Shown here in pieces: positions 599-27,760 of a DNA stretch of 39,803 nt. The notes beneath the pieces were generated by a model. The model ran no database searches, was not told the origin of the DNA, and saw nothing but the letters and a program-made list of their open reading frames with translations. The DNA comes from Escherichia phage HC13. The position numbers and the translations under genes were made by a program. The stretch is taken from sequence record OL362276.1; one strand, given 5' to 3'. Numbering within the stretch: position 1 is the stretch's first letter; every line of letters begins with the position of its first letter.

Positions 599-708
599 AT
601 CAACACGAAACAACGACCGAAACGGTCTACCTGAAGTCCTCTGACTGAAGGGAATGCTCTTTAACAATCTGGATAAACTCTTAATGTGCGCCGATAGCGA
701 CTAACTAC

Positions 709-751
709 AGGGCCTTTGAGTCTACATCTGAAGGCCCTGACTGATAGTCAC
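709..751 (+). promoter_or_regulatory. Early-leader hairpin plus GACTGATAGTCA element (candidate RNase III site R0.3)
   Basis: AGGGCC (709-714) pairs with GGCCCT (733-738). It is followed by CTGACTGATAGTCAC, and the same GGCC..TGACTGATAGTCA element recurs at 1647-1671 before the next early gene. Confidence 0.35.
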
Positions 752-783
752 TAACACATAATTAACTTTGAGAGGATATAACT

Positions 784-1293
784 ATGGAACGTAATGCTAA
801 CGCATACTATGAGCTGCTGGCTGAAACCGTTGAGGTATTTATCGAGCGTATTCAGTACGACCACCTGACTCAAGATGACGACTACAGCACTGCGCTGCAT
901 GAGGTCGTAGACGGTCAGGTTCCACACTATTACCACGAGATTTTTACGGTGATGGCTGCTGATGGTATAGACAACGAGTTCGAAGACTCTGGGATGATAC
1001 CTGAAACCAAGGACGTAACGCGTATCCTACAAGCTCGCATCTATGAGGCACTTTATAACGACGTGTCTAATAGCTTGGATGTAGTCTGGTTTGAGGATGA
1101 AGAGGCAGACGAAGAGGATGAATATTGGGTAGTTGACGCTAAAACAGGCGCAATAATTGTGCAAGCTGTAGCTCTTGAGGTCGCTACTGCATGTGCCAAG
1201 GTTAACTATGAGGCAGGTCGCCACCTGAAGGTGGAAGACATCAATGATAACGTAGTGTTCGACCCTGCGTCTGCTGAGGAGGACTGCCAGTAA
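784..1293 (+). CDS. 0.3: Ocr-like DNA-mimic anti-restriction protein (gene 0.3) with an extra C-terminal extension
   Basis: 169 aa. Residues about 20-100 ([66 protein letters not shown]) align with T7 Ocr as recalled ([66 protein letters not shown]). SD GAGAGGA upstream. First gene after the early promoters. Confidence 0.85.
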   Translation: [169 protein letters not shown]

Positions 1294-1478
1294 TGAGCAA
1301 GATATACGCAATATACTATGTCGTGCCTAACTCATGGGGAGATGACCACATCCTGCAGGAGCCTTGTTATTATAACGAGGATGAGGCAAAACAGGCACTA
1401 GCGGAAGCCCAAGCGGAAGCCAAAGACCCTTGGTCTGGCGTGTATAAGGCCTACATGGAGGTTATACAAGTTGTCTAA
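1293..1478 (+). CDS. Hypothetical early protein (61 aa)
   Basis: ATG overlaps the Ocr stop (TAATGA). Same-strand early position; no recognisable motif. Confidence 0.5.
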   Translation: MSKIYAIYYVVPNSWGDDHILQEPCYYNEDEAKQALAEAQAEAKDPWSGVYKAYMEVIQVV

Positions 1479-2351: not shown

Positions 2352-2677
2352 TGAACAAGTCATACGGGATTAATCTGGTACACTCTATGGACGCAGACAT
2401 GCAAATGTTAAGCCTACTGGCTACCGGGTATCGTCACGGGACGTCAAGTCACTCCGCACGTCAACAGCAGGAGCGGGACCGGGTACTGCAAGCAAGACTC
2501 CGGGCTGAGGGCCATAAGTCCGAACTAATGTGTCTGGCGTATGGTGGACGACCAATCACTGACGATGGTAAACTTTTAGTCTCAGGCTGGAAGGCGATAG
2601 ACCAGCGGTCAACCATCAAGCACACGACTCATGGTGACTTCAGTCATCTCCACGCTAACCCGCTGATATGCAAGTAA
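2351..2677 (+). CDS. Hypothetical early protein (108 aa), occupies the slot of T7 gene 0.7
   Basis: ATG overlaps the previous stop. No kinase motifs. Last ORF before the RNAP gene. Confidence 0.5.
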   Translation: MNKSYGINLVHSMDADMQMLSLLATGYRHGTSSHSARQQQERDRVLQARLRAEGHKSELMCLAYGGRPITDDGKLLVSGWKAIDQRSTIKHTTHGDFSHLHANPLICK

Positions 2678-2682
2678 TTCTG

Positions 2683-2706
2683 ACTTAACTATCACTATAG
2701 GACTCA
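2683..2706 (+). promoter_or_regulatory. Phage RNAP promoter (TTAACTATCACTATAGG, +1 about 2700) upstream of gene 1
   Basis: Matches the 11-copy promoter family in this window. Architecture is that of T7 promoters (..CACTATAG G..). Confidence 0.7.
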
Positions 2707-2774
2707 AGGTCTAAGACTCCAAGTGAAAGACCAAAGAGACTTTAAGTGAAAGACTAATAACAAGGACTTTAAGT

Positions 2775-5456
2775 ATGAGCGTCATCTCTATTGACAAGCA
2801 CGACTTCTCTGATGTGTCGAACGCCATTGAGCCGTTTAACCTACTGGCTGACCACTACGGGCAAGACCTTGCAGTCAAACAGCTTCAGCTTGAGCACGAG
2901 GCATACACTGAAGGCGAGCGACGTTTCATCAAGAACCTTGAGAGACAGACTGAGCGAGGGGAACTGGCAGACAATCAGGTCGCCAAGCCTTTGATGCAGA
3001 CTCTGGTCCCTAAGATTGCGCAAGCCGTCAAGGAGTGGCATGAAGGTCCAGACGGGAAGCTGTCAACCTCTCGTCCTAGCGTAGCGTTCACCGTGTTGAG
3101 CACTGAAGAGAAGGCCGTCAAGGACCGCTCTATGCGCATCTCCTGTGAGTCCGCTGCGGTTATCATACTGAAGGTCATACTCTCCAAGCTGGTCAAGCCT
3201 GAAGGGATACCGATTACACCGATGGCCTCCGCGATAGGTCGCACACTTGAGGACGAAATCCGCTTCGGTCGCATCCGTGACAAAGAGAAAGAGCACTTCA
3301 AGAAGGCGATAGCTGATAACCTGAATAAGCGGGCCGGGGCGTCATACAAGAAAGCCTACATGCAAGCGGTCGAGGCGTCCATGCTGGAGCAAGGCCAACT
3401 GGAAGATGCGTGGGGGACTTGGAGTCCTACAGAGGCTGTCCACGTTGGCATCAAGATGCTCGAGATTGTCATCCAGTCAACACAACTGGTCGAGCTTAAG
3501 CGGTATGGTGCTGGTAATGCAGCGGCTGACGTAGAGATGGTCCACCTGTCAGACTTCTGGGTCAAGAAGATGGCACAACGAGGATTCAGCCTTGCGGGTA
3601 TAGCTCCAGTCTACCAGCCTTGCGTCGTTCCACCTAAGCCGTGGACTGGTGTCGTAGGCGGTGGGTACTGGGCCAAAGGACGCAGACCATTACCACTGAT
3701 TCGCTTAGGGTCTAAGTCTGCGGTAGCACGCTACGAAGACGTGTATATGCCTGAAGTCTATGACGCTGTGAACATCATTCAGAATACACCTTGGAAAGTG
3801 AACAAGAAGGTTCTGGAAGTGGTGAACATGGTCGAGAAGCTGAACAACACGCCTATTGATGACATCCCTCAGATGGAACCGCTGAAGCCTGAGGACTATG
3901 CGGGTGAGACTGAAGAAGAACTCAAGGCATGGAAGAAGGCTGCTGCTGGTATCTATCGCCGCGAGAAGGCCAGACAGTCACGAAGATTGTCACTGAGCTT
4001 TATCGTCAACCAAGCGAACAAGTTCTCTCAGTTCAAGGCCATCTGGTTCCCGTATAACATGGACTGGCGCGGTCGCGTCTACGCTGTGCCGATGTTCAAC
4101 CCTCAGGGTAACGACATGCAAAAGGGTCTTCTGACTCTGGCAGTCGGTAAGCCTATTGGTGCTGATGGTTTCAAATGGCTGAAGGTCCACGGTGCAAACT
4201 GCGCGGGTGTCGATAAAGTCACCTTCGAGGAGCGTATCAAGTGGGTGGAAGATAACCACGACAACATCATGGCTGCTGCCAATGCACCGATGGATAGCAT
4301 TGAGTGGTGGGGCAAGTTAGACTCTCCGTTCTGCTTCCTAGCGTTCTGCTTCGAGTATGCTGGCGTAATGCACCACGGCTTGTCTTACTCCTGCTCGCTG
4401 CCGATAGCGTTCGATGGGTCCTGCTCTGGGATTCAGCACTTCAGCGCTATGCTTCGCGACCACATCGGTGGACATGCAGTAAACCTGACGCCATCCGGTA
4501 AGGTCCAAGACATCTACCGCATCGTGTCTGACCGCATTGAGGAGGAGCTTAAAGTCCTACTGGTTAACGGTACGGACAACGAGATGGTAACTCACGAGGA
4601 CAAGAAAACTGGTGAGATTACCGAGCGTCTCAAGCTGGGGACACGAGAGCTTGCCCGTCAGTGGCTGACCTACGGTATGTCACGAAAGGTCACTAAGCGT
4701 TCGGTCATGACTCTGGCCTACGGGTCGAAAGAGTACGGCTTCGCAGACCAAGTTTACGAGGACATCGTGATGCCAGCGATTGACTCAGGGTCTGGCGCTA
4801 TGTTCACTGAACCAAGCCAAGCATCTCGCTTCATGGCTAAGATGATTTGGGAAGCTGTGAGTGTGACCGTAGTTGCTGCGGTTGACGCGATGAAATGGCT
4901 TCAGGGTGCTGCCAAGCTGCTTGCTGCTGAAGTGAAGGACAAGAAGACTGGAGAAATCCTGAAGCCTTGTCTTCCGGTACACTGGGTCACACCTGATGGT
5001 TTCCCTGTCTGGCAGGAATACCGCAAGAAGGACACCACTCGTCTGAACCTGATGTTCTTAGGGTCATTCAACCTTCAGCCTACCGTCAACAAAGGCACGA
5101 AGAAAGAGCTGGACAAGCACAAGCAGGAGTCAGGCATTAGCCCGAACTTCGTCCACTCACAAGATGGTAGCCACCTGCGGAAGACTGTAGTCCACACTCA
5201 CCGCAAGTATGGCGTGATGTCATTCGCAGTGATTCACGATAGCTTCGGGACCATCCCTGCTGACGCTGAGTATCTGTTCCGTGGTGTCCGTGAGACGATG
5301 GTCGAGACATACCGCGATAACGATGTGCTGCTTGACTTCTACGAGCAGTTTGAATACCAGCTTCATGAAAGCCAGCGCGACAAGTTGCCTGAGCTTCCGA
5401 AGAAAGGTAAACTGAATATCGAAGACATCTTGTCTTCAGACTTTGCATTCGCTTAA
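2775..5456 (+). CDS. 1: Single-subunit DNA-directed RNA polymerase (T7 gene 1 homologue)
   Basis: 893 aa, aligns end to end with T7 RNAP as recalled (ANQFKAIWFPYNMDWRGRVYA, HGANCAGVDK, DGSCSGIQHFSAM, KRSVMTLAYGS, NFVHSQDGSHLR, IHDSFGT, C-terminal SDFAFA). Confidence 0.97.
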   Translation: MSVISIDKHDFSDVSNAIEPFNLLADHYGQDLAVKQLQLEHEAYTEGERRFIKNLERQTERGELADNQVAKPLMQTLVPKIAQAVKEWHEGPDGKLSTSRPSVAFTVLSTEEKAVKDRSMRISCESAAVIILKVILSKLVKPEGIPITPMASAIGRTLEDEIRFGRIRDKEKEHFKKAIADNLNKRAGASYKKAYMQAVEASMLEQGQLEDAWGTWSPTEAVHVGIKMLEIVIQSTQLVELKRYGAGNAAADVEMVHLSDFWVKKMAQRGFSLAGIAPVYQPCVVPPKPWTGVVGGGYWAKGRRPLPLIRLGSKSAVARYEDVYMPEVYDAVNIIQNTPWKVNKKVLEVVNMVEKLNNTPIDDIPQMEPLKPEDYAGETEEELKAWKKAAAGIYRREKARQSRRLSLSFIVNQANKFSQFKAIWFPYNMDWRGRVYAVPMFNPQGNDMQKGLLTLAVGKPIGADGFKWLKVHGANCAGVDKVTFEERIKWVEDNHDNIMAAANAPMDSIEWWGKLDSPFCFLAFCFEYAGVMHHGLSYSCSLPIAFDGSCSGIQHFSAMLRDHIGGHAVNLTPSGKVQDIYRIVSDRIEEELKVLLVNGTDNEMVTHEDKKTGEITERLKLGTRELARQWLTYGMSRKVTKRSVMTLAYGSKEYGFADQVYEDIVMPAIDSGSGAMFTEPSQASRFMAKMIWEAVSVTVVAAVDAMKWLQGAAKLLAAEVKDKKTGEILKPCLPVHWVTPDGFPVWQEYRKKDTTRLNLMFLGSFNLQPTVNKGTKKELDKHKQESGISPNFVHSQDGSHLRKTVVHTHRKYGVMSFAVIHDSFGTIPADAEYLFRGVRETMVETYRDNDVLLDFYEQFEYQLHESQRDKLPELPKKGKLNIEDILSSDFAFA

Positions 5457-8678: not shown

Positions 8679-8716
8679 CGTCCAGTTAGTAACTTTAAAT
8701 TAGGAGATTTACACCA

Positions 8717-9409
8717 ATGGCTAAAGAGCAACTGAAGACTTTCACCACTCCGGTAGCTGGTATCGTTGAGCCTTACGCATGGCTGAACAAAGCAGACACC
8801 AAGTTTAATGAACGTGGTGAGCATAAGGTTAACCTGACGTTCGACCTGAGCGACCCGAAGGTCCGTAAGATGATTGATGTCTTACAGAAGATTCACGACG
8901 ATGCGTATGCGAAAGCACTCGCAGACCACGAGAAGAACCCACCTCAGGTTCAGCGTGGCAAGAAGCCTATTGAACCACGTGAAGGCGACATGCCGTGGAT
9001 TGAGAATGGTGACGGTACTGTTACCCTTAAGTTTAAATGCTTTGCGTCTTACCTGAAAGACGGCAAGTCCGAGCCTATCTTATTACGGTTCTACGACACC
9101 GATGCTAAACTCATCCGTGACGTCCCGAATATTAGCGCTGGCTCCAAACTGAAGGTCAAGTTTAAAGTCCTGCCGTTCAAGTGGAACGCTGCGACCGGTG
9201 CAAGCGTTAAGCTCCAGCTTGAGTCCTGCCTTCTTGTAGAACTGAAGGAGTGGAAAGGTGCTGGTGGTGATGGTGGCTGGGGTGATGATGAAGACCTTGG
9301 TACTGGCTACAAAGCGCCAACCGATGGTGACTTCGGGTCTGATGCCTTCGGTGACGATGGTTCCGAAGGTGGTGACGACTCCAGCTCTGGTGGCGATTAC
9401 GACTTCTAA
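8717..9409 (+). CDS. 2.5: Single-stranded DNA-binding protein (gene 2.5)
   Basis: Aligns with T7 gp2.5 (AEPYAWLNK, GKKPIEPREGDMPW, GASVKLQLES, acidic C-terminus ending in F). Confidence 0.93.
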   Translation: MAKEQLKTFTTPVAGIVEPYAWLNKADTKFNERGEHKVNLTFDLSDPKVRKMIDVLQKIHDDAYAKALADHEKNPPQVQRGKKPIEPREGDMPWIENGDGTVTLKFKCFASYLKDGKSEPILLRFYDTDAKLIRDVPNISAGSKLKVKFKVLPFKWNAATGASVKLQLESCLLVELKEWKGAGGDGGWGDDEDLGTGYKAPTDGDFGSDAFGDDGSEGGDDSSSGGDYDF

Positions 9410-9858
9410 TGGCTACAGTGAAAAGCCTTAAGCAGCGACTCATGGTTTCGGGTGACTGCTGGCTTTTTACAGGCTGCGTTAACAACAAGGGCTACGGTCA
9501 GATTAGGCATAATGGGAAAACCATGCTTGCACATCGCGTAGCCTACGAGCTGATTACAGGTGAGGAACCTAACGGTGTTCTACTACACACTTGTGACACT
9601 CCGCTATGTTGTAACCCTGAGCATCTGACTGTAGGAACCCAACGGGACAACCTTCAGGACATGCGTAACAAGGGGCGCGGTGTAAACCCTCCTCATGTTC
9701 CGGGAGAGAAGTGTGGTATGTCTAAACTTACCAACACTAAAGTCAAGGAAATTAGGTCTTCCAGCCTTACCCAGCGACAGCTCGCCACAATCTACGGAGT
9801 GTCTCAGCCGACAATAGGTAAGATACTAAGGAGAGAAACATGGCGACACGTAATATAA
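9409..9858 (+). CDS. HNH family homing endonuclease
   Basis: LAHRVAYEL...HTCDTPLCCNPEHL...QRDN is a classic HNH His-Cys core. C-terminal LTQRQLATIYGVSQPTIGKIL is helix-turn-helix-like. Start overlaps the SSB stop (TAATG). Confidence 0.8.
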   Translation: MATVKSLKQRLMVSGDCWLFTGCVNNKGYGQIRHNGKTMLAHRVAYELITGEEPNGVLLHTCDTPLCCNPEHLTVGTQRDNLQDMRNKGRGVNPPHVPGEKCGMSKLTNTKVKEIRSSSLTQRQLATIYGVSQPTIGKILRRETWRHVI

Positions 9859-10295
9859 GCAGGGGTCACTCGATAGGAATATACCGTTCCGGCCTTGAGG
9901 CCAAGAACCAAGAGTGGCTAGAGAAGAACGGAGTTAAGGCTGAGTACGAAATGTATAACATTAAGTACACAATACCTGAGTCACTCCATAGTTATTGTCC
10001 AGACTTTGTTCTTCCAAATGGAATCATCGTGGAGACCAAGGGAATCTTCGCAGTCGAAGACCGTAAGAAGCACCTTCTGGTACGCGAACAACACCCAGAG
10101 TTAGACATCCGGTTCGTGTTCTCAAGTTCCCGCTCCAAGTTATACAAAGGGTCTCCGACCACGTATGGCGCATGGTGCGAAAAGAACGGATTTAAGTATG
10201 CCGATAAGTTCATCCCGGTTGAGTGGCTGCGAGAGGCGACTGTACGTCTTCCCTCAGGTATCCTCATCCCCAAGAAGAAAGGAGTTAAGTTATGA
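9840..10295 (+). CDS. 3: Endonuclease I, Holliday-junction resolvase (gene 3)
   Basis: Aligns with T7 endo I (FRSGLE, PDFVLPNGIIVETKG, DRKKHLLVREQHPELDIRFVFSSSRSKLYKGSPT). Confidence 0.92.
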   Translation: MATRNISRGHSIGIYRSGLEAKNQEWLEKNGVKAEYEMYNIKYTIPESLHSYCPDFVLPNGIIVETKGIFAVEDRKKHLLVREQHPELDIRFVFSSSRSKLYKGSPTTYGAWCEKNGFKYADKFIPVEWLREATVRLPSGILIPKKKGVKL

Positions 10296-10516
10296 CTCAA
10301 GAAGTTAAGGTCGTTCGTAAGCGTCTGACCATTGATAAAATCCCGGTAGGCTATGCGTTTATCGTCCACGGTAAGCCGGGTGAAGTGTACGTGAAGATTA
10401 GTAACTCTCACGTCTTCAACCATAAGTTGCTCCAGATGCACACCACTGATGCTAACCGCTTCCAACGTCATCTGAACCTCGTAGCTGTAGAGCTGGTGGT
10501 GTACGATGGTGAGTAA
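10292..10516 (+). CDS. Hypothetical protein (74 aa)
   Basis: Strong SD AAAGGAG seven nt upstream. Sits between endo I and lysozyme; no motif recognised. Confidence 0.5.
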   Translation: MTQEVKVVRKRLTIDKIPVGYAFIVHGKPGEVYVKISNSHVFNHKLLQMHTTDANRFQRHLNLVAVELVVYDGE

Positions 10517-13149: not shown

Positions 13150-13195
13150 GTCTAGACTCAAGGTCATTCACAGCGAGTGGCCTTTATGATTAGAC
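13150..13195 (+). promoter_or_regulatory. Putative RNase III processing hairpin (R4.7-like)
   Basis: Lower stem GUCUAG pairs with UUAGAC, internal loop, upper stem AAGGUCAU pairs with GUGGCCUU, 9-nt loop. Same family as 6022 and 36801. Confidence 0.45.
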
Positions 13196-13212: not shown

Positions 13213-13644
13213 ATGAGGACTTGCAGTAGATGTGGCTCCACAAAGGAGTCAACTGAGTTCAGGAAGATAAATGGGTGGTGCATATCCTGTGTTCGTGAGG
13301 ATAATAGGCTGCGATACCACCGAAACAAAGGTACAGATGCTGGTGAGGCGCATCGCCTATCTGCCCGTAAGTCTTGGCTTAAGAAAGCCTATGGTCTCAC
13401 ACTTGAGGAATATGACACTATGTTCGATAGTCAAAAGGGCAGATGCGCTATATGCTCAGACATTATCTTCAAGCATGGGTCTATTGAGAGTAAGAATAAT
13501 GTAGCCCACGTTGACCATTGCCATGACTCAGGTATTGTTAGGGGATTGCTATGTGGTACATGTAATAGCGCACTTGGTAAGTTCGGTGACAAGGTAGCCG
13601 TGCTTAGGGCTGCTATAGCGTACTTGGAGAAATATAATGTTTAA
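13213..13644 (+). CDS. HNH homing endonuclease, endonuclease VII-like His-Me finger
   Basis: GRCAICSD...VAHVDHCHDSGIVRGLLCGTCNSALG is the endonuclease-VII-type signature. N-terminal CSRCG...CISC zinc ribbon. SD GGAGGA before the ATG at 13213 (the track ORF starts upstream at 13177). AT-rich, with rare AGA/AGG/ATA codons. Confidence 0.8.
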   Translation: MRTCSRCGSTKESTEFRKINGWCISCVREDNRLRYHRNKGTDAGEAHRLSARKSWLKKAYGLTLEEYDTMFDSQKGRCAICSDIIFKHGSIESKNNVAHVDHCHDSGIVRGLLCGTCNSALGKFGDKVAVLRAAIAYLEKYNV

Positions 13645-15808
13645 TCTCAACTCATTCTATGGCACAGATATAGAGACTGACGGTCTACTAGACACTGTGT
13701 CACAGTTCCATTGTGGTGTTATCATTAACGCCGGAACTCAGGCTACTGAGAAATATGGTGTTGCCCCTATGACTGGGCTGACAGGTGGATTCAAAGAGTA
13801 CATAGACCGCATAGAATCTATTATGGCATCCACTGACGGTATGCTGGTTCTGCACAATGGTGTGAACTATGATATACCAGCCTTGAAAATACTGAAGAAG
13901 AAATACTTTGGTAAGAACCTAAATGTGAATAAGGGTCGAATTATTGATACCTTGGTGCTGGGACGCTTGATGTATCCAAACATTAAGTTCTCAGACATGG
14001 GCGCGGTGAAAGCTGGTCGTCTGCCTCCTAAGATGATGGGACGCCAGTCTCTTGAGGCTTGGGGTTATCGTCTCGGTGAGATGAAGGGTGAGTACAAACA
14101 CGATTACGTTGCCAAGTGCAAGGCAGAAGGTATCGAATATAAGGCTGGGGACGAATGGTTGTTCCCATCTCAGGAGATGCTGGACTATAACGTTCAAGAC
14201 GTTGTGGTCACACTGGCGTTGTTCAAGAAGTTCCTGACTGACAAGTATTACTTCCAGTCTGAACAGTTCGCTTTCGAACAGATTTATGCGTTGCGTCTGG
14301 AACATGATGCTGCGTGGACCTGTGCGAAGATGGAGCGTAACGGCTATCCGATGAACACCGAGATGGTCGAAGGCTTATATCGTGAACTCACTGTCAAACG
14401 TGCTGAGTTGCTGGACAAGCTGCGTTCGACTTTCGGCAGCTGGTACGCACCAAAGGGAGGCAAGGAGTTCTTCAAGCACCCACGGACAGGCAAGGACCTC
14501 CCGAAGTATCCGCGAGTCGTGTACCCTAAGGTCGGGTCAGTATTCAAGAAGCCGAAGAACAAAGCTCAACGCTTAGGTCTGGAACCTTGCGAGTTCGACT
14601 CACGAGACACGATGAAGGGAGCACCGTTCACACCTATCACTTACGTTGAGTTTAATCCGGGAAGCGGAGACCACTTAGCGAAAGTCCTGATGGAGCGTGG
14701 CTGGGAGCCTGTGGACTTCACTGACACCGGGAAACCTGTAGTCGATGACGAGACGTTAGAACACGTTAAGTTACCAGACGCAGAGGCTCAGGCTTGCGTA
14801 GAGCTGGTCCGTGAGTATCTGGTAGTCCAGAAGAGAATCGGGCAGGCTGCTGAAGGTAAGAACGCTTGGTTGAAACTTGTAGGTCCAGACGGACGTATGC
14901 ACGGTTCAATCAACCCATGTGGTGCAGTAACCGGACGTGCGACTCATAGTTCACCAAACATGGCTCAGGTCCCGGCTAACGGTGCTCCATACGGTGAGAC
15001 TTGCCGTGGTGCTTTCGGTGCAGCGTGGAACAAGAAGGACGGTAAGCCAGACCCTTGGATTCAAGTAGGTGTGGATGCCTCAGGTCTTGAGCTTCGTTGT
15101 CTTGGGAACAGAGCGGCTCCGTTTGATGGTGGTGCCTATGCGAAGACTGTGGTCGAAGGTGACATCCACTGGGCCAACGCAGTAAACGCTGGGTTAGCAC
15201 CTAACGTCCAACGCGATAAGTCTAACCACGACCATGAGGCTTTCCGTAACAACGCTAAGACGTTCATCTACGCGTTCCTGTATGGTGCAGGGGCCGCTAA
15301 GATTGGACTGATAGTAGGCGGTGGTAAGAAGGAAGGTTCAGCGCTCATGAAGAAATTCATTGAGGGTACACCAGCTATCAAGGACCTCAGGGAAGCTGTG
15401 CAGAACACGCTCATCTCTGAGTCCAAATGGGTAGACGGTGAGAACATCGTGAAGTGGAAACGCCGCTGGCTGAAAGGTCTGGACGGTCGACGCATCCACA
15501 TCCGGTCGCCACACTCAGCACTGAACGCCTTACTTCAGGGTGATGGTGCGGTAGTCTGTAAGCACTGGATTGTTGAGACTGAACGTATGCTTGAAGCCGA
15601 AGGATATGTCCACGGCTGGGATGGAGACTTTGCGTACATGGCATGGGTGCACGATGAGCTACAAATTGCCTGTAAAAACAAGGACTTAGCAGAACGCGTA
15701 GTAGAAATTGCTCAACTTGCTATGCGTAAGGTTGGTGAGTTCTATAACTTTAAATGTGTGTTAGACACGGAGGGTAAAATTGGACCAACGTGGAAAGAAT
15801 GCCATTGA
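13637..15808 (+). CDS. 5: DNA polymerase (gene 5, family A)
   Basis: Collinear with T7 gp5 (exo motif DIETDG, FHCGVI, EAWGYRLGEMKGEYK, YNVQDVVVT, GAVTGRATH, NAKTFIYAFLYGAG, YMAWVHDE, C-terminal WKECH). Start overlaps the HNH stop by 8 nt. Confidence 0.97.
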   Translation: MFNLNSFYGTDIETDGLLDTVSQFHCGVIINAGTQATEKYGVAPMTGLTGGFKEYIDRIESIMASTDGMLVLHNGVNYDIPALKILKKKYFGKNLNVNKGRIIDTLVLGRLMYPNIKFSDMGAVKAGRLPPKMMGRQSLEAWGYRLGEMKGEYKHDYVAKCKAEGIEYKAGDEWLFPSQEMLDYNVQDVVVTLALFKKFLTDKYYFQSEQFAFEQIYALRLEHDAAWTCAKMERNGYPMNTEMVEGLYRELTVKRAELLDKLRSTFGSWYAPKGGKEFFKHPRTGKDLPKYPRVVYPKVGSVFKKPKNKAQRLGLEPCEFDSRDTMKGAPFTPITYVEFNPGSGDHLAKVLMERGWEPVDFTDTGKPVVDDETLEHVKLPDAEAQACVELVREYLVVQKRIGQAAEGKNAWLKLVGPDGRMHGSINPCGAVTGRATHSSPNMAQVPANGAPYGETCRGAFGAAWNKKDGKPDPWIQVGVDASGLELRCLGNRAAPFDGGAYAKTVVEGDIHWANAVNAGLAPNVQRDKSNHDHEAFRNNAKTFIYAFLYGAGAAKIGLIVGGGKKEGSALMKKFIEGTPAIKDLREAVQNTLISESKWVDGENIVKWKRRWLKGLDGRRIHIRSPHSALNALLQGDGAVVCKHWIVETERMLEAEGYVHGWDGDFAYMAWVHDELQIACKNKDLAERVVEIAQLAMRKVGEFYNFKCVLDTEGKIGPTWKECH

Positions 15809-16196
15809 CGGAAAGTCCCTGCATTATACAGGTGCTGCGAGCGAGTTGTATGCGAGCTACCGACTGACGGCTATGGGACACCAAGTCTTCCTACCTGCGT
15901 TCACCCAGTCCAAAGCGGACTTAGTGGTGGATATCAACGGGACCCTTATGAGGGTTCAGGTGAAAACTGGGACCAAGCTGAAGAACTGTAATAGCATTCA
16001 GGTCCGGCTTGGTGGGTGCGGTAAGCCAACTTACAGTCCTGGAGACATCGACCTACTAGCGGTTGTCTATCAGGATTTGCTCTGGCTTATACCGTTCACT
16101 GAAGAGGTTAGAGTCAAGACCTCTATGTGTATAAACTTAACGTCTGACAAGAAGTACGGACAATTTAAACAGGAGAAGACTAATGGCTATTACTAA
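15780..16196 (+). CDS. Hypothetical protein, possible PD-(D/E)xK-like nuclease fold
   Basis: TTG start with SD GGAGGG five nt upstream. Pattern E(22)...ADLVVD...RVQVK resembles restriction-endonuclease-like / Hjc-type cores, with Q in place of the usual acidic residue. Weak inference. Confidence 0.4.
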   Translation: MDQRGKNAIDGKSLHYTGAASELYASYRLTAMGHQVFLPAFTQSKADLVVDINGTLMRVQVKTGTKLKNCNSIQVRLGGCGKPTYSPGDIDLLAVVYQDLLWLIPFTEEVRVKTSMCINLTSDKKYGQFKQEKTNGYY

Positions 16197-16467
16197 ACGT
16201 ATTCGTGTGAGTTTTGATCTGAAGATGGTTGTTAACTCAAAGGAAGAAGATACCATGTGTCGCCAACTGGCTGAGATGACTAAAGCCTACGCTGAGGGTG
16301 AGGAGCTGGATGGTCTTCAGTTGGCTATGGTAAAAACCGCAATCGAGTCAGGCCCTGAGTCTGCCCTTGAAATTGCCCTCAAGAAGACCATCAAGGAGGA
16401 GCTGGTAGACGACTTTGGTTATGGCCAGTTCGGAGTATCTAACCTGCGATTCGAGGTCAAGCAATGA
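16183..16467 (+). CDS. 5.5: gp5.5-like protein
   Basis: N-terminus MAITKRIRVSFDL resembles T7 gp5.5 (MAMTKKFKVSFDV, recollection). Position between gene 5 and 5.7. Confidence 0.55.
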   Translation: MAITKRIRVSFDLKMVVNSKEEDTMCRQLAEMTKAYAEGEELDGLQLAMVKTAIESGPESALEIALKKTIKEELVDDFGYGQFGVSNLRFEVKQ

Positions 16468-16673
16468 GTGAATACTTACGGGTCCTAGCGGCCCTTAAGT
16501 CTTGCCCGAAGACCTTCCAGTCCAACTACGTGCGCAACAATGCGGCACTGGTGGCTGAGGCTGCGAGTCGTGGACATCTGAGCTGTCTGTCTATGGACGG
16601 GCGTAACAACGGTGCGTGGGAGATTACCGCTGCTGGCACCAAGTTCCTGAACCAACATGGAGGATGCCTGTGA
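16464..16673 (+). CDS. 5.7: gp5.7
   Basis: 69 aa, about 80% identical to T7 gp5.7 as recalled (LKSCPKTFQSNYVRNNAALVAEAASRGHLSCL...GGAWEITAAGTKFL). Confidence 0.85.
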   Translation: MSEYLRVLAALKSCPKTFQSNYVRNNAALVAEAASRGHLSCLSMDGRNNGAWEITAAGTKFLNQHGGCL

Positions 16674-17536
16674 GCGAAAAGAAAATAGCTCTGGTTCTTG
16701 ATGGTGACTATCTGGTCTTCTCTTCTATGGCTGCTGCCGAGGACGAGACTGACTGGGGCGATGACATCTGGACCCTTATCTGCGACCATGAGAAGGCTCG
16801 TCGCATCCTTGAGAACACCATCGCTGAAATCGTTAAGAAGCGCAAGGCGTGGAAAGACGCTAAGATTGTGATGTGCTTCACTGACGATTACAACTGGCGT
16901 AAGGACGTCCTGCCTACCTATAAGGCCAACCGTAAAGGTTCTCGCAAGCCTGTAGGTTACAAGAAGTTCGTAGCCGAAGTGATGGCTGACCCACGGTTCA
17001 ACAGCTTCCTGCGTCCTACGCTTGAAGGCGATGATTGTATGGGTATCATCGGGACCAGACCTCAGATTGTAGGCTGTGACCATGCTGTTCTGGTGTCCTG
17101 TGATAAGGACTTCAAGACCATCCCGAACTGTGAGTTCTTCTGGTTAACCACTGGTGAAATCCTGAGTCATACGACTGCTGAGGCAGACTACTGGCACATG
17201 GAGCAGACCATCAAGGGTGACACTACAGATGGCTACGGTGGTATTCCGGGGATGGGTGAGGACACCACTCGTGCATTCCTTGACGAACCGTATTACTTCG
17301 TGCAGGAGAGCCGCGAGCTTAAGACTGGCAAGAACAAAGGCCAGATTAAGACTGAGTGGAAGAAGTATCCGAAGCGTGAAGACATGACGCTGTGGGACTG
17401 CATGGTTACACTGGCTGCTAAGGCTGGCATGACCGAGGAGGAACTTCTGGTCCAAGCTCAGGTCGCTCGTATTTGTCGAGCCTCCGACTATGACCCTAAG
17501 TCCAAGGAGGTCATCCTATGGACACCATCCATGTAA
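16670..17536 (+). CDS. 6: 5'-3' exonuclease (gene 6)
   Basis: Aligns with T7 gp6 (LVLDGDYLVF, CFTDDYNWRK, YKANRK, KKPVGY, CDKDFKTIPNC, TIKGDTTDGY, MTEEEL). I prefer the GTG at 16670 (SD GGAGGA six nt upstream, overlapping the 5.7 stop); the track ORF starts at 16616. Confidence 0.92.
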   Translation: MSEKKIALVLDGDYLVFSSMAAAEDETDWGDDIWTLICDHEKARRILENTIAEIVKKRKAWKDAKIVMCFTDDYNWRKDVLPTYKANRKGSRKPVGYKKFVAEVMADPRFNSFLRPTLEGDDCMGIIGTRPQIVGCDHAVLVSCDKDFKTIPNCEFFWLTTGEILSHTTAEADYWHMEQTIKGDTTDGYGGIPGMGEDTTRAFLDEPYYFVQESRELKTGKNKGQIKTEWKKYPKREDMTLWDCMVTLAAKAGMTEEELLVQAQVARICRASDYDPKSKEVILWTPSM

Positions 17537-26272: not shown

Positions 26273-26296
26273 CCTTAACTATCACTATAGGGACTA
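26273..26296 (+). promoter_or_regulatory. Phage RNAP promoter (TTAACTATCACTATAGGGA, +1 about 26290)
   Basis: Promoter-family match. Position equals T7 phi13. Flanked by the inverted repeat GGGCCTATAG / CTATAGGCCC. Confidence 0.8.
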
Positions 26297-26324: not shown

Positions 26325-26786
26325 ATGTATATTCGCAAGGCTACGGATGTAGACGTTTGGTACGCTGCTGCACAACTTACAGATGACGACTTAGAGGAGT
26401 GTAAAGCCAACTATGGGACCACTGAAGGTCTCACTGAAAGGCTGCAAGCACACCTAACGTCTACATCTGTTGTTTTGACTAACGCTCTTGGAGAGATTTA
26501 CGCCTATGGTGGCAACCAAGGTGACAACGTTTGGTTCCTGACTACCAGAATGACCGAGCGTCTCCCGCCTAAAGGTAAGCGAGAGTTCCGTGAGAGAATC
26601 ATGGAGTATCGTGACAAGATGCTGGAGGACTATCCGGTACTATGGAACTACGTCTGGGAAGGCAATACGTCTCATATCCGGTTTCTCAAGTCAATAGGAG
26701 CTAAGTTCCACGACGATAAGTGGACCAGAAGTCCAGTGACTGGAGAAGTATTTATTCTATTCACAATCACTAAGGAGGACACGTGA
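26325..26786 (+). CDS. Internal virion protein gp13-like
   Basis: 153 aa, good SD. Positional equivalent of T7 gene 13; no sequence recollection to confirm. Confidence 0.55.
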
Positions 26787-27169
26787 CTAAGGTCTGTACC
26801 GTCTGTAAAATTGAAAAGCCACTAGAAGCGTTCTCCCCACGGAAAGACTCTAAGTGTGGTGTACGCTCTGCCTGTAAGCTGTGTCATAATGGACGAAGCC
26901 ACAAGAACAAGGGATACGAGAAGTATCACATTACGCAGATAGAATATGATTCCATCCTAAAAGAGCAGGGCGGGGTCTGCGCAATCTGCAAGACATTAGG
27001 AACTAGCCGAGGATTATGCGTTGACCACTGTCACACCTCCGGGAAAGTCCGAGGAATCCTATGTCATACCTGCAACCTAAAGCTGACCCGTAGAAACTAC
27101 CACTCTACATGCGAAGATTTCGATGGTAAGGCTGCTGAGTATCTGGCTACAAGCCGGAAGGGGGATTAG
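26783..27169 (+). CDS. HNH homing endonuclease, endonuclease VII-like (second copy)
   Basis: GGVCAICKT...[24 protein letters not shown] is the same His-Me finger signature as ORF 13213..13644. N-terminal CTVC...CKLC zinc ribbon. ATGA-overlaps the gene 13 stop. Confidence 0.8.
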
Positions 27170-27205
27170 GAAATTTGCGAACCAATTTCAATCGGTCTAG
27201 GAATC

Positions 27206-27760
27206 ATGTCTGTAGCAGGGGCCACTATGTCCGCATCCCAACAGGCCAAGGCCGAAGGTGCGGCAATTGACGCTCAGAACCGTCAGGCTCAGGAGATGGT
27301 TAAGCAGATGAACTACTCTGACGCCAACCTGAGGATGCAGGAGCGCGACCTGAAGGAGCAGCAGATGGCTGAACTGACAGAGACCACGCTCAACGGTATC
27401 CGCAATCAGGGTATGGTCCGAGCTGCGGTGGCTGAGTCCGGTCTGGAAGGTAACTCTATGGACAGGATTGAACGTCAGGTAGCAGGAGATACAGTCAAGG
27501 AGCGAGCAGGGATTACCGAAAGTTACAACCGCGACTATGCGGCTATCTTCGGGAACCGTATCGCCAACATTGAGAACACCAAGTCTGCTATCCACGGTCA
27601 AGGTAAAATCATCAAGACCAGCCCACTGGCTCATGCACTTAATGTGGCAAGCGCCGGGATGCAGGGGTACGCTGCTGGTAAGTCAATCTCTGGGGCATCA
27701 AGCTCTGGTGGTGCTGCACCGATTAGTGCTGCTAAAGGTACACCTACAGGTCATAGCTAA
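27206..27760 (+). CDS. 14: Internal virion protein A (gene 14)
   Basis: Aligns with T7 gp14 as recalled (GNSMDRIERQ..., ESYNRDYAAIFG, Gly/Ala/Ser-rich C-terminus). Confidence 0.8.
   Translation: MSVAGATMSASQQAKAEGAAIDAQNRQAQEMVKQMNYSDANLRMQERDLKEQQMAELTETTLNGIRNQGMVRAAVAESGLEGNSMDRIERQVAGDTVKERAGITESYNRDYAAIFGNRIANIENTKSAIHGQGKIIKTSPLAHALNVASAGMQGYAAGKSISGASSSGGAAPISAAKGTPTGHS

Follow-up and report, generated by a model that had tools for sequence, protein, structure and literature searches.

The genome of Escherichia phage HC13 (sequence record OL362276.1) was analysed over a stretch of 39,803 nucleotides (nt), here called the window. Between genes 13 and 14 it carries an open reading frame (ORF), 26783..27169, whose product has the motif of endonuclease VII (Endo VII). 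Sequence comparisons indicate that this ORF most probably represents a homing endonuclease gene of free-standing, Endo VII-motif type (DHHRN, F-CphI-like), the 'gene 13.5' of the Kayfunaviruses. Its insertion point falls exactly between the ribosome-binding site of the essential gene 14 and the start codon of that gene; the ORF takes the former Shine–Dalgarno sequence (SD) of gene 14, and its own last codons supply a replacement. The gene belongs to an ordinary, already annotated class. The phage is itself a Kayfunavirus (a K1F-like relative of T7), and its nearest genomes in GenBank are Kayfunaviruses with approximately 94–96% identity, none of them identical.

Insertion of gene 13.5 between genes 13 and 14

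The junction of genes 13 and 14 in the window has the following features.

26273..26295, plus strand: phage RNA polymerase promoter phi13, identical to the phi13 annotated in EcoDS1; drives genes 13, 13.5, 14 and onward
26325..26786, plus strand: gene 13, internal virion/scaffold protein (PF11090, E 6e-36), the upstream neighbour of the endonuclease gene
26772..26779, plus strand: SD AAGGAGGA, serving the endonuclease GTG; in empty alleles it serves the gene 14 ATG with the same 4-nt spacing
26780..27172, plus strand: insert segment, missing in empty-site relatives (junction alignments against 22 empty loci)
26783..27169, plus strand: gene 13.5-type ORF, Endo VII-motif (DHHRN) beta-beta-alpha-Me endonuclease of 128 amino acids (PF02945)
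27157..27165, plus strand: SD-like AAGGGGGA, made up of the final endonuclease codons (K-G-D), 7–8 nt upstream of the gene 14 ATT
27170..27290, plus strand: 5' part of gene 14, a candidate for the target region or for a tract transferred along with the insert, 73–86% identical to empty-site relatives
27173..27760, plus strand: gene 14, internal virion protein (PF24072)

The junction was compared between the window, eight GenBank loci and 42 IMG/VR loci, with anchoring based on tblastn. The empty alleles (22 Kayfunavirus-type loci) read AAGGAGGAC-GT-ATG-TGY-GAA or AAAGGAGG-CTGAT-ATG, which leaves about 2–5 nt (GT or CTGAT) between the SD and the ATG of gene 14. The occupied allele, present in the window and in ZCEC02, PSK1, U8, pO91, CY1, ST21 and Penshu1, reads AAGGAGGAC-AC-GTG-ACT-AAG; the endonuclease start lies at the exact former position of the gene 14 start, behind the same SD. 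At its 3' end the insert reads ...AAG GGG GAT TAG GAA, followed by ATT TGC GAA. The SD-like AAGGGGGA is kept in all eight intact copies, in both remnants and in Ro45lw.

The promoter phi13 contains a perfect consensus match (26276..26293), one of nine such matches in the window as compared with 0.02 expected. A promoter belonging to the 13.5 ORF itself was considered and rejected: the nine phage promoter matches fall elsewhere, phi13 lying upstream of gene 13. As the insert has no promoter of its own, gene 13.5 is read from the late virion-gene transcript that starts at phi13.

Beyond the 5' tract, the rest of gene 14 is approximately 93–100% identical to empty-site relatives. Fixed differences between occupied and empty alleles were sought in gene 14 in order to locate the target, and the G>T change in the start codon alone is strictly linked to the insert. 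The other variants also occur in some empty alleles, so no target can be named from them.

Distribution and mobility of gene 13.5

There are 242 phage records that match the locus, 13 of which hold a copy with at least 60% amino acid identity: ten intact and three remnant (KM02 and two ZG49 records). The intact copies are those of ZCEC02, PSK1, MirsaeidiM_Esher2, U8, pO91, CY1, Penshu1 and ST21/ST3/ST1. The GenBank copies of the gene are 87–99% identical, and some are labelled 'endonuclease VII'. In IMG/VR, 40 of the 42 loci with a gp13 relative are without the insert. The junction map comprises 22 empty loci, eight intact copies, two remnants and two other lineages at the same 13/14 junction.

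Most relatives have nothing inserted at the 13/14 site; in the others it is occupied by members of at least three different Endo VII lineages or by decayed remnants. In EcoDS1, TH20 and PDP351P4 the occupant is a different Endo VII gene (annotated as gene 13.5 and approximately 42–44% identical), and an EcoDS1-type gene has been reported in Hafnia phage Ca (PMC8861465). Ro45lw carries a third Endo VII lineage, 40% identical to the window protein. The Ro45lw gene (2443..2853 of the compared locus) ends nearly as the window gene does, over the last approximately 30 nt (…AAEYLA.S.K.D*) and the ATT, which suggests that it is of chimeric or recombinant origin.

The two kinds of remnant differ in what was lost. 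The KM02 remnant (701..883 of the compared locus) has an in-frame internal deletion of 204 nt; the active site is gone and both ends are kept. The ZG49 remnant (901..1143 of the compared locus) has lost the 5' third of the gene plus the end of gene 13, which appears to be about 45 codons shorter.

The window-type gene is found on two gp13 backgrounds (approximately 65% nucleotide identity), and the gene together with the 5' end of gene 14 is 96–100% identical between U8 and the window. The presence of the same cassette on both backgrounds is hard to explain without lateral movement. Gene 13 itself occurs as two allele types that differ at approximately 35% of nucleotides: one is found in the window, CR44b, ST29 and EcoDS1, and the other in most K1F-like phages. 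On one side the alleles begin to differ near the intergenic region of genes 12 and 13, and on the other side the boundary is the 13/14 junction. The life cycle of a homing endonuclease gene is expected to produce intact, variant, decayed and empty states at a single site, as observed here.

The gene 13.5 protein

The GTG start of the ORF overlaps the stop codon of gene 13 (GTGA), and the ORF ends with TAG. The start is supported by the orthologues of Penshu1 and ST21, which have ATG at this position, and by the strong SD 4 nt upstream. There is no ORF of 40 or more amino acids on the minus strand within 26783..27169, so that a gene on that strand is unlikely.

The protein matches PF02945 (Endonuclease_7) with 60.7 bits and E 1.3e-16 (Pfam gathering score 23.6). 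PF02945 alone is reported at E ≤ 0.01, and the HNH and HNH_3 models give no match. The gene had been called an HNH gene in the initial annotation, and this label is acceptable if the beta-beta-alpha-Me superfamily as a whole is meant; the Endo VII motif constitutes a separate DHHRN family in the classification of Fang et al. 2018 (PMC6083498).

Two zinc (Zn) sites can be recognized, site 1 formed by C5/C8/C31/C34 and site 2 by C66/C69/C94/C97, and the catalytic residues are D81 (codon 27023..27025), H82, H84, R90 and N98. Both Cys4 sites and all DHHRN residues are invariant in alignments of 44 and 47 sequences; the residues invariant among the 44–47 homologues include C66, C69, D81, H82, H84, R90, L93, C94, C97 and N98. 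The DHHRN motif occupies residues 66–98 of 128, in the C-terminal half, and residues 1–47 constitute a separate Cys4 zinc repeat. An AlphaFold2 model obtained with 44 sequences (mean pLDDT 88.4) has two hairpins plus helices at residues 1–47 and a beta-beta-alpha unit at residues 77–102. In a Foldseek comparison of this model with the Protein Data Bank (PDB), Hpy99I ranks first (E 1e-4) and T4 endonuclease VII next.

The ratio of non-synonymous to synonymous divergence (dN/dS) among the gp13.5 copies is 0.04–0.16, with dS up to approximately 2. The ORF is an intact gene under purifying selection.

Proposed homing function and alternatives

We propose the following course of events. In a mixed infection, gp13.5, probably as a dimer, would read bases with its N-terminal zinc repeat and cut with its C-terminal repeat, as in Hpy99I. 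A co-infecting phage without the 13.5 gene would be cleaved by it around the junction of genes 13 and 14, and recombinational repair with the endonuclease-carrying genome as template would then transfer the 13.5 gene and a short piece of gene 14 to the cleaved genome. The window holds a precedent: a second Endo VII-motif gene, at 13213..13644 in front of gene 5, has a sharp boundary and a strictly linked divergent flank. That gene would have arrived independently, with a foreign piece of gene 5 of approximately 320 nt.

Several observations weigh against homing, or against parts of this scheme. Homing activity is predicted from sequence in this lineage. The flank of gene 14 linked to gene 13.5 is short (approximately 120 nt) and its drop in identity is mild (73–86%), far weaker than that of the gene 5 flank. 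Some copies have changes at key residues (C94R in ST21, G87W in pO91). The global TM-score of the Foldseek comparison is just 0.31, which makes the relative orientation of the two zinc repeats uncertain. Late (class III) expression is an unusual timing for a homing enzyme. Finally, the very low dN/dS over saturated dS indicates more constraint than a pure parasite might keep, and could mean that the phage benefits.

The last two points also favour a domesticated or beneficial nuclease, one that harms co-infecting competitors or cuts host or foreign DNA and for which homing is secondary: dN/dS is low across copies whose synonymous divergence is saturated, and expression from phi13 is late. A phage homing endonuclease acting in competition between viruses has a published precedent (PMC11620839). 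However, the patchy distribution, the remnants in KM02 and ZG49 and the key-residue substitutions resemble the gain, decay and loss cycle of a selfish gene. The sequence does not separate this explanation from ordinary homing, and the two are not exclusive; we consider a primarily beneficial role unlikely.

The phage has a Holliday junction resolvase of its own:

9840..10295, plus strand: gene 3, T7-type endonuclease I (PF05367, E 4e-74)

The name of the Pfam family, annotations such as 'recombination endonuclease VII' in several GenBank records and the catalytic residues held in common with T4 endonuclease VII could suggest that gp13.5 is likewise a resolvase of Holliday junctions or branched DNA, serving DNA maturation. 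This is highly improbable. Only residues 16–85 of the T4 enzyme align with gp13.5; T4 residues from approximately 86 to 157 are without a counterpart, the query ending approximately 30 residues after N98. In T4 endonuclease VII this C-terminal half (approximately 86–157) forms the dimerization and junction-binding domain. The published criteria for telling the endonuclease clade (homing, restriction) from the resolvase clade are the position of the motif and the presence of another resolvase in the host phage (PMC6083498). We place gp13.5 in the endonuclease clade because its C-terminal motif is preceded by an extra N-terminal zinc repeat, the arrangement of that clade (PMC6083498), and because the phage already encodes endonuclease I. 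In addition, gene 13.5 is missing from most close relatives and therefore cannot serve a core function in maturation.

Comparison with known systems

The homing endonuclease reading places gp13.5 beside F-CphI and the DHHRN clade (PMC6083498), with which it shares a small size and, in its C-terminal half, the C..C / D-H-x-H / R / C..C-N motif; the likeness to F-CphI is judged by the published description of motif and architecture. Members of this clade also occur in podoviruses that have T7 endonuclease I, and there are free-standing or intron-encoded relatives in T7-like phages. F-CphI differs in that it adjoins an intron-bearing psbA gene in a cyanomyovirus and in that its activity and key residues have been tested (PMC6083498). 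A tblastn search with gp13.5 gave a match in Yersinia phage Yep-phi (NC_023715.1, 13999..14259; 43.5% over residues 48–127) that lies within the gene annotated as DNA polymerase. It probably represents the Endo VII-motif endonuclease, encoded in an intron, that has been described from related Yersinia phages (PMC6083498).

Among proteins of solved structure, the best sequence match is the restriction enzyme Hpy99I (PDB 3fc3; E 1.6e-4, query residues 3–105 to Hpy99I 76–182, which are its repeats 1 and 2). Both have two beta4-alpha2 repeats with a Cys4 zinc in each; Hpy99I is a dimer when it cuts DNA, its first repeat recognizing bases through the major groove and its second containing the active site (PMC2699513). 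By homology, we infer a similar division of labour between the two repeats of gp13.5. Unlike Hpy99I, gp13.5 is without the N-terminal SH3-like beta-barrel needed for Hpy99I activity (the alignment starts at Hpy99I 76), and its gene has no neighbouring methyltransferase, lying between genes 13 and 14 inside the operon of phage virion genes.

T4 endonuclease VII (gp49; PDB 1e7d, 1en7) shares the catalytic core, with equivalents of D40/H41/H43/R54/N62, one zinc site and the Pfam family. It differs from gp13.5, which has the extra N-terminal zinc repeat and is encoded by a dispensable, sporadic gene in a phage whose resolvase is endonuclease I.

The EcoDS1 gene 13.5 ('endonuclease VII', YP_002003777) and the Ro45lw gene are of the same family and similar size and lie at the same 13/14 site, but their products are only approximately 40–44% identical to the window protein. 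The EcoDS1 type keeps and overlaps the ATG of gene 14, and the Ro45lw type has just the last approximately 30 nt and the ATT in common with the window.

The free-standing homing endonucleases of T4-like phages and ICP1, such as SegB and MobE (PMC10448857), are likewise intergenic, beside conserved essential genes, and have sharp identity boundaries and co-transferred flanks, features that are very clear at the gene 5 site of the window. They belong to other families, GIY-YIG and classical HNH. Such elements in T4-like phages and ICP1 commonly have their own promoters. In contrast, the window genes rely on the host operon and take over the ribosome-binding site of the neighbouring gene.

Relation to the endonuclease gene in front of gene 5

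The second Endo VII-motif gene and its flank have the following positions.

13213..13644, plus strand: the other Endo VII-motif endonuclease gene, 143 amino acids, between the SD and the ATG of gene 5
13637..13960, plus strand: divergent 5' tract of gene 5 (DNA polymerase), strictly linked to the 13213 endonuclease gene

The 13213 protein matches PF02945 with 85.0 bits and E 3.4e-24 (gathering score 23.6). The ORF listing extends it to a GTG at 13177, but the ATG at 13213 is the likely start, as it stands behind the SD CGGAGGA at exactly the place that the gene 5 ATG takes up in insert-free genomes. The new start of gene 5 is overlapped by the final codons of the inserted gene. Copies with more than 95% identity are present in four of the 267 matching records (R1, SHAK9454, Zappy and UFJF_EcSW4). 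Compared with phage 6925, which has an empty site, identity is 97–100% up to the insertion, 47–77% over the first approximately 320 nt of gene 5, and again 97–100% thereafter. The 324-nt tract of gene 5 is at least 97% identical in only the four phages with the 13213-type endonuclease, and at most 71% in all 124 others. It is a textbook example of a linked flank and agrees with a target region that resists cleavage and travels together with the endonuclease gene.

The 13213 protein is also 46–54% identical over its full length to the products of genes in T7-like phages of Aeromonas, Pseudomonas and Klebsiella, and most of these matches touch the annotated DNA polymerase gene and thus appear to lie at the same site. 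On the sequences compared, the pre-gene-5 site is a hot spot for different nuclease families. In Citrobacter phage CR44b it holds an unrelated HNH_3/helix-turn-helix homing endonuclease, 'gene 7.7B' (914..1315 of the compared locus).

The initial annotation described the two Endo VII genes as paralogues that share a motif and an N-terminal zinc ribbon, and took them to imply repeated invasion or intragenomic spread. Both genes are present at these positions and score above the PF02945 threshold. The quoted motif is found in both proteins (GGVCAIC... in one, KGRCAIC...VDHCHDSGIVRGLLCGTCN in the other), and the N-terminal CxxC...CxxC is common to both, C5, C8, C31 and C34 being invariant in a five-sequence alignment. 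In a pairwise BLASTP alignment, the proteins are 45% identical over 62 residues (E 1e-13), within the catalytic core only. This is a family signature far above chance, and the shared motif is not incidental.

The degree of relationship was then ranked within a pool of 87 Endo VII-motif proteins from the compared loci, selected for similarity to gp13.5. The pool came from a wide IMG/VR scan with a family alignment, in which 80 environmental loci are 32–56% identical to gp13.5; the same 80 loci are uninformative on insertion sites in T7-like phages. In the hit list of gp13.5 the 13213 protein is 86th of 87, and in that of the 13213 protein gp13.5 is 82nd, the latter being the fairer figure since the pool is biased towards relatives of gp13.5. 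The 13213 protein is closer to gp13.5 of EcoDS1 (43%, full length) than to gp13.5 of its own genome. Among the database genomes, none carries both window-type genes.

Repeated invasion is thereby favoured: both genes are sporadic, their sites are empty in most close relatives and no genome has the two together. Intragenomic spread is not supported, as the alignment is limited to the 62-residue core and the mutual ranks are at the bottom of the pool. We give almost no credence to an origin of both genes by duplication or ectopic movement inside this genome, although they have the same Pfam family and two-zinc architecture, although related lineages occupy both sites in different phages (as EcoDS1 gp13.5 illustrates) and although the EcoDS1 gene ends like the 13213 gene, overlapping the ATG of the next gene, because each has much closer relatives at its own site elsewhere (87–99% for gene 13.5, 95–97% for the 13213 gene) and none of the database genomes has both. 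For a recent event, such an origin is already contradicted. The comparisons support the view that the two genes are distant relatives acquired independently. Deeper in the family, related lineages are found at both sites, and switching between the 13/14 and pre-gene-5 sites has therefore probably occurred at some past time.

The start of gene 14

The start position of gene 14 (27173..27175) is ATT in all eight intact copies, in both remnants and in Ro45lw (11 genomes), and ATG in all 22 empty alleles and in EcoDS1. The endonuclease stop codon TAG (27167..27169) is in frame with gene 14, one codon upstream of the ATT. The first ATG of gene 14 is at 27206, with just a weak AGGA 3 nt upstream, and AAGGGGGA is well spaced for the ATT. 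Annotators of GenBank records have taken three different downstream ATGs as the start of gene 14. Codons 2–11 are conserved as protein (CEP[IV]SIG[LM]G[ILV]) despite synonymous changes, for example TCA in ZG49 versus AGC for the same serine. These synonymous variants could be imported from empty alleles by recombination.

A plausible, if unproven, possibility is that gp14 is initiated at AUU, perhaps in coupling with the end of endonuclease translation. For the ATT, the sole ribosome-binding site in a good position is AAGGGGGA, which consists of the last codons of the endonuclease gene. On this basis it is conceivable, though rather doubtful, that the 13.5 endonuclease has made gene 14 depend on a selfish gene, a translational 'addiction'. 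If gp14 does start at AUU through ribosomes arriving from the end of the endonuclease ORF, losing the selfish gene would carry a penalty, and this would account for the KM02 deletion being in frame, with both ends kept.

Other nuclease genes in the window

The window has a T7-like gene order (ocr, RNA polymerase, gene 2.5, endonuclease I, primase-helicase, DNA polymerase, tail tube, gp13, gp14, gp15), and all its genes are on the plus strand. Two further ORFs of nuclease type lie outside the sites described above.

9409..9858, plus strand: endonuclease gene of HNH_3 plus helix-turn-helix type, located between genes 2.5 and 3
15780..16196, plus strand: candidate fourth free-standing nuclease, PD-(D/E)XK (PDDEXK_5) ORF (PF11645, E 3.4e-10), directly after gene 5

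The ATG of the 9409 gene overlaps the stop codon of gene 2.5, and its 3' end overlaps the start of gene 3. The gene is sporadic: among 220 records, only three extend over 80% or more of 8700..10400, the majority being approximately 430 nt shorter. It is present in UFJF_EcSW4 and two others only; Penshu1, TM1 and PE3-1 have a different HNH gene there. The stretch 15300..16700 is highly variable in Kayfunaviruses, with 23 of 250 records covering at least 80% of it; HC12 is 99.9% identical.

The initial annotation counted three free-standing endonucleases in this genome, the 9409 gene being one. The 9409 gene is indeed an HNH_3 plus helix-turn-helix endonuclease gene, but three is a minimum in view of the candidate at 15780..16196. 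Judged by sequence, the free-standing nuclease genes of this genome number at least three and probably four, the core endonuclease I not included.

Significance for the Kayfunaviruses

The entries 'recombination endonuclease VII' and 'hypothetical protein' in Kayfunavirus records are best read as a selfish homing endonuclease gene. Kayfunaviruses are under development for therapy, and such genes mark points of DNA exchange, which bears on genome stability and on the design of cocktails. The window is a compact natural system, with three or four nuclease genes, each placed precisely at the ribosome-binding site of an essential gene. It could serve for experiments on homing, and on the cost of homing, among T7-like phages, in which few free-standing examples have been studied.

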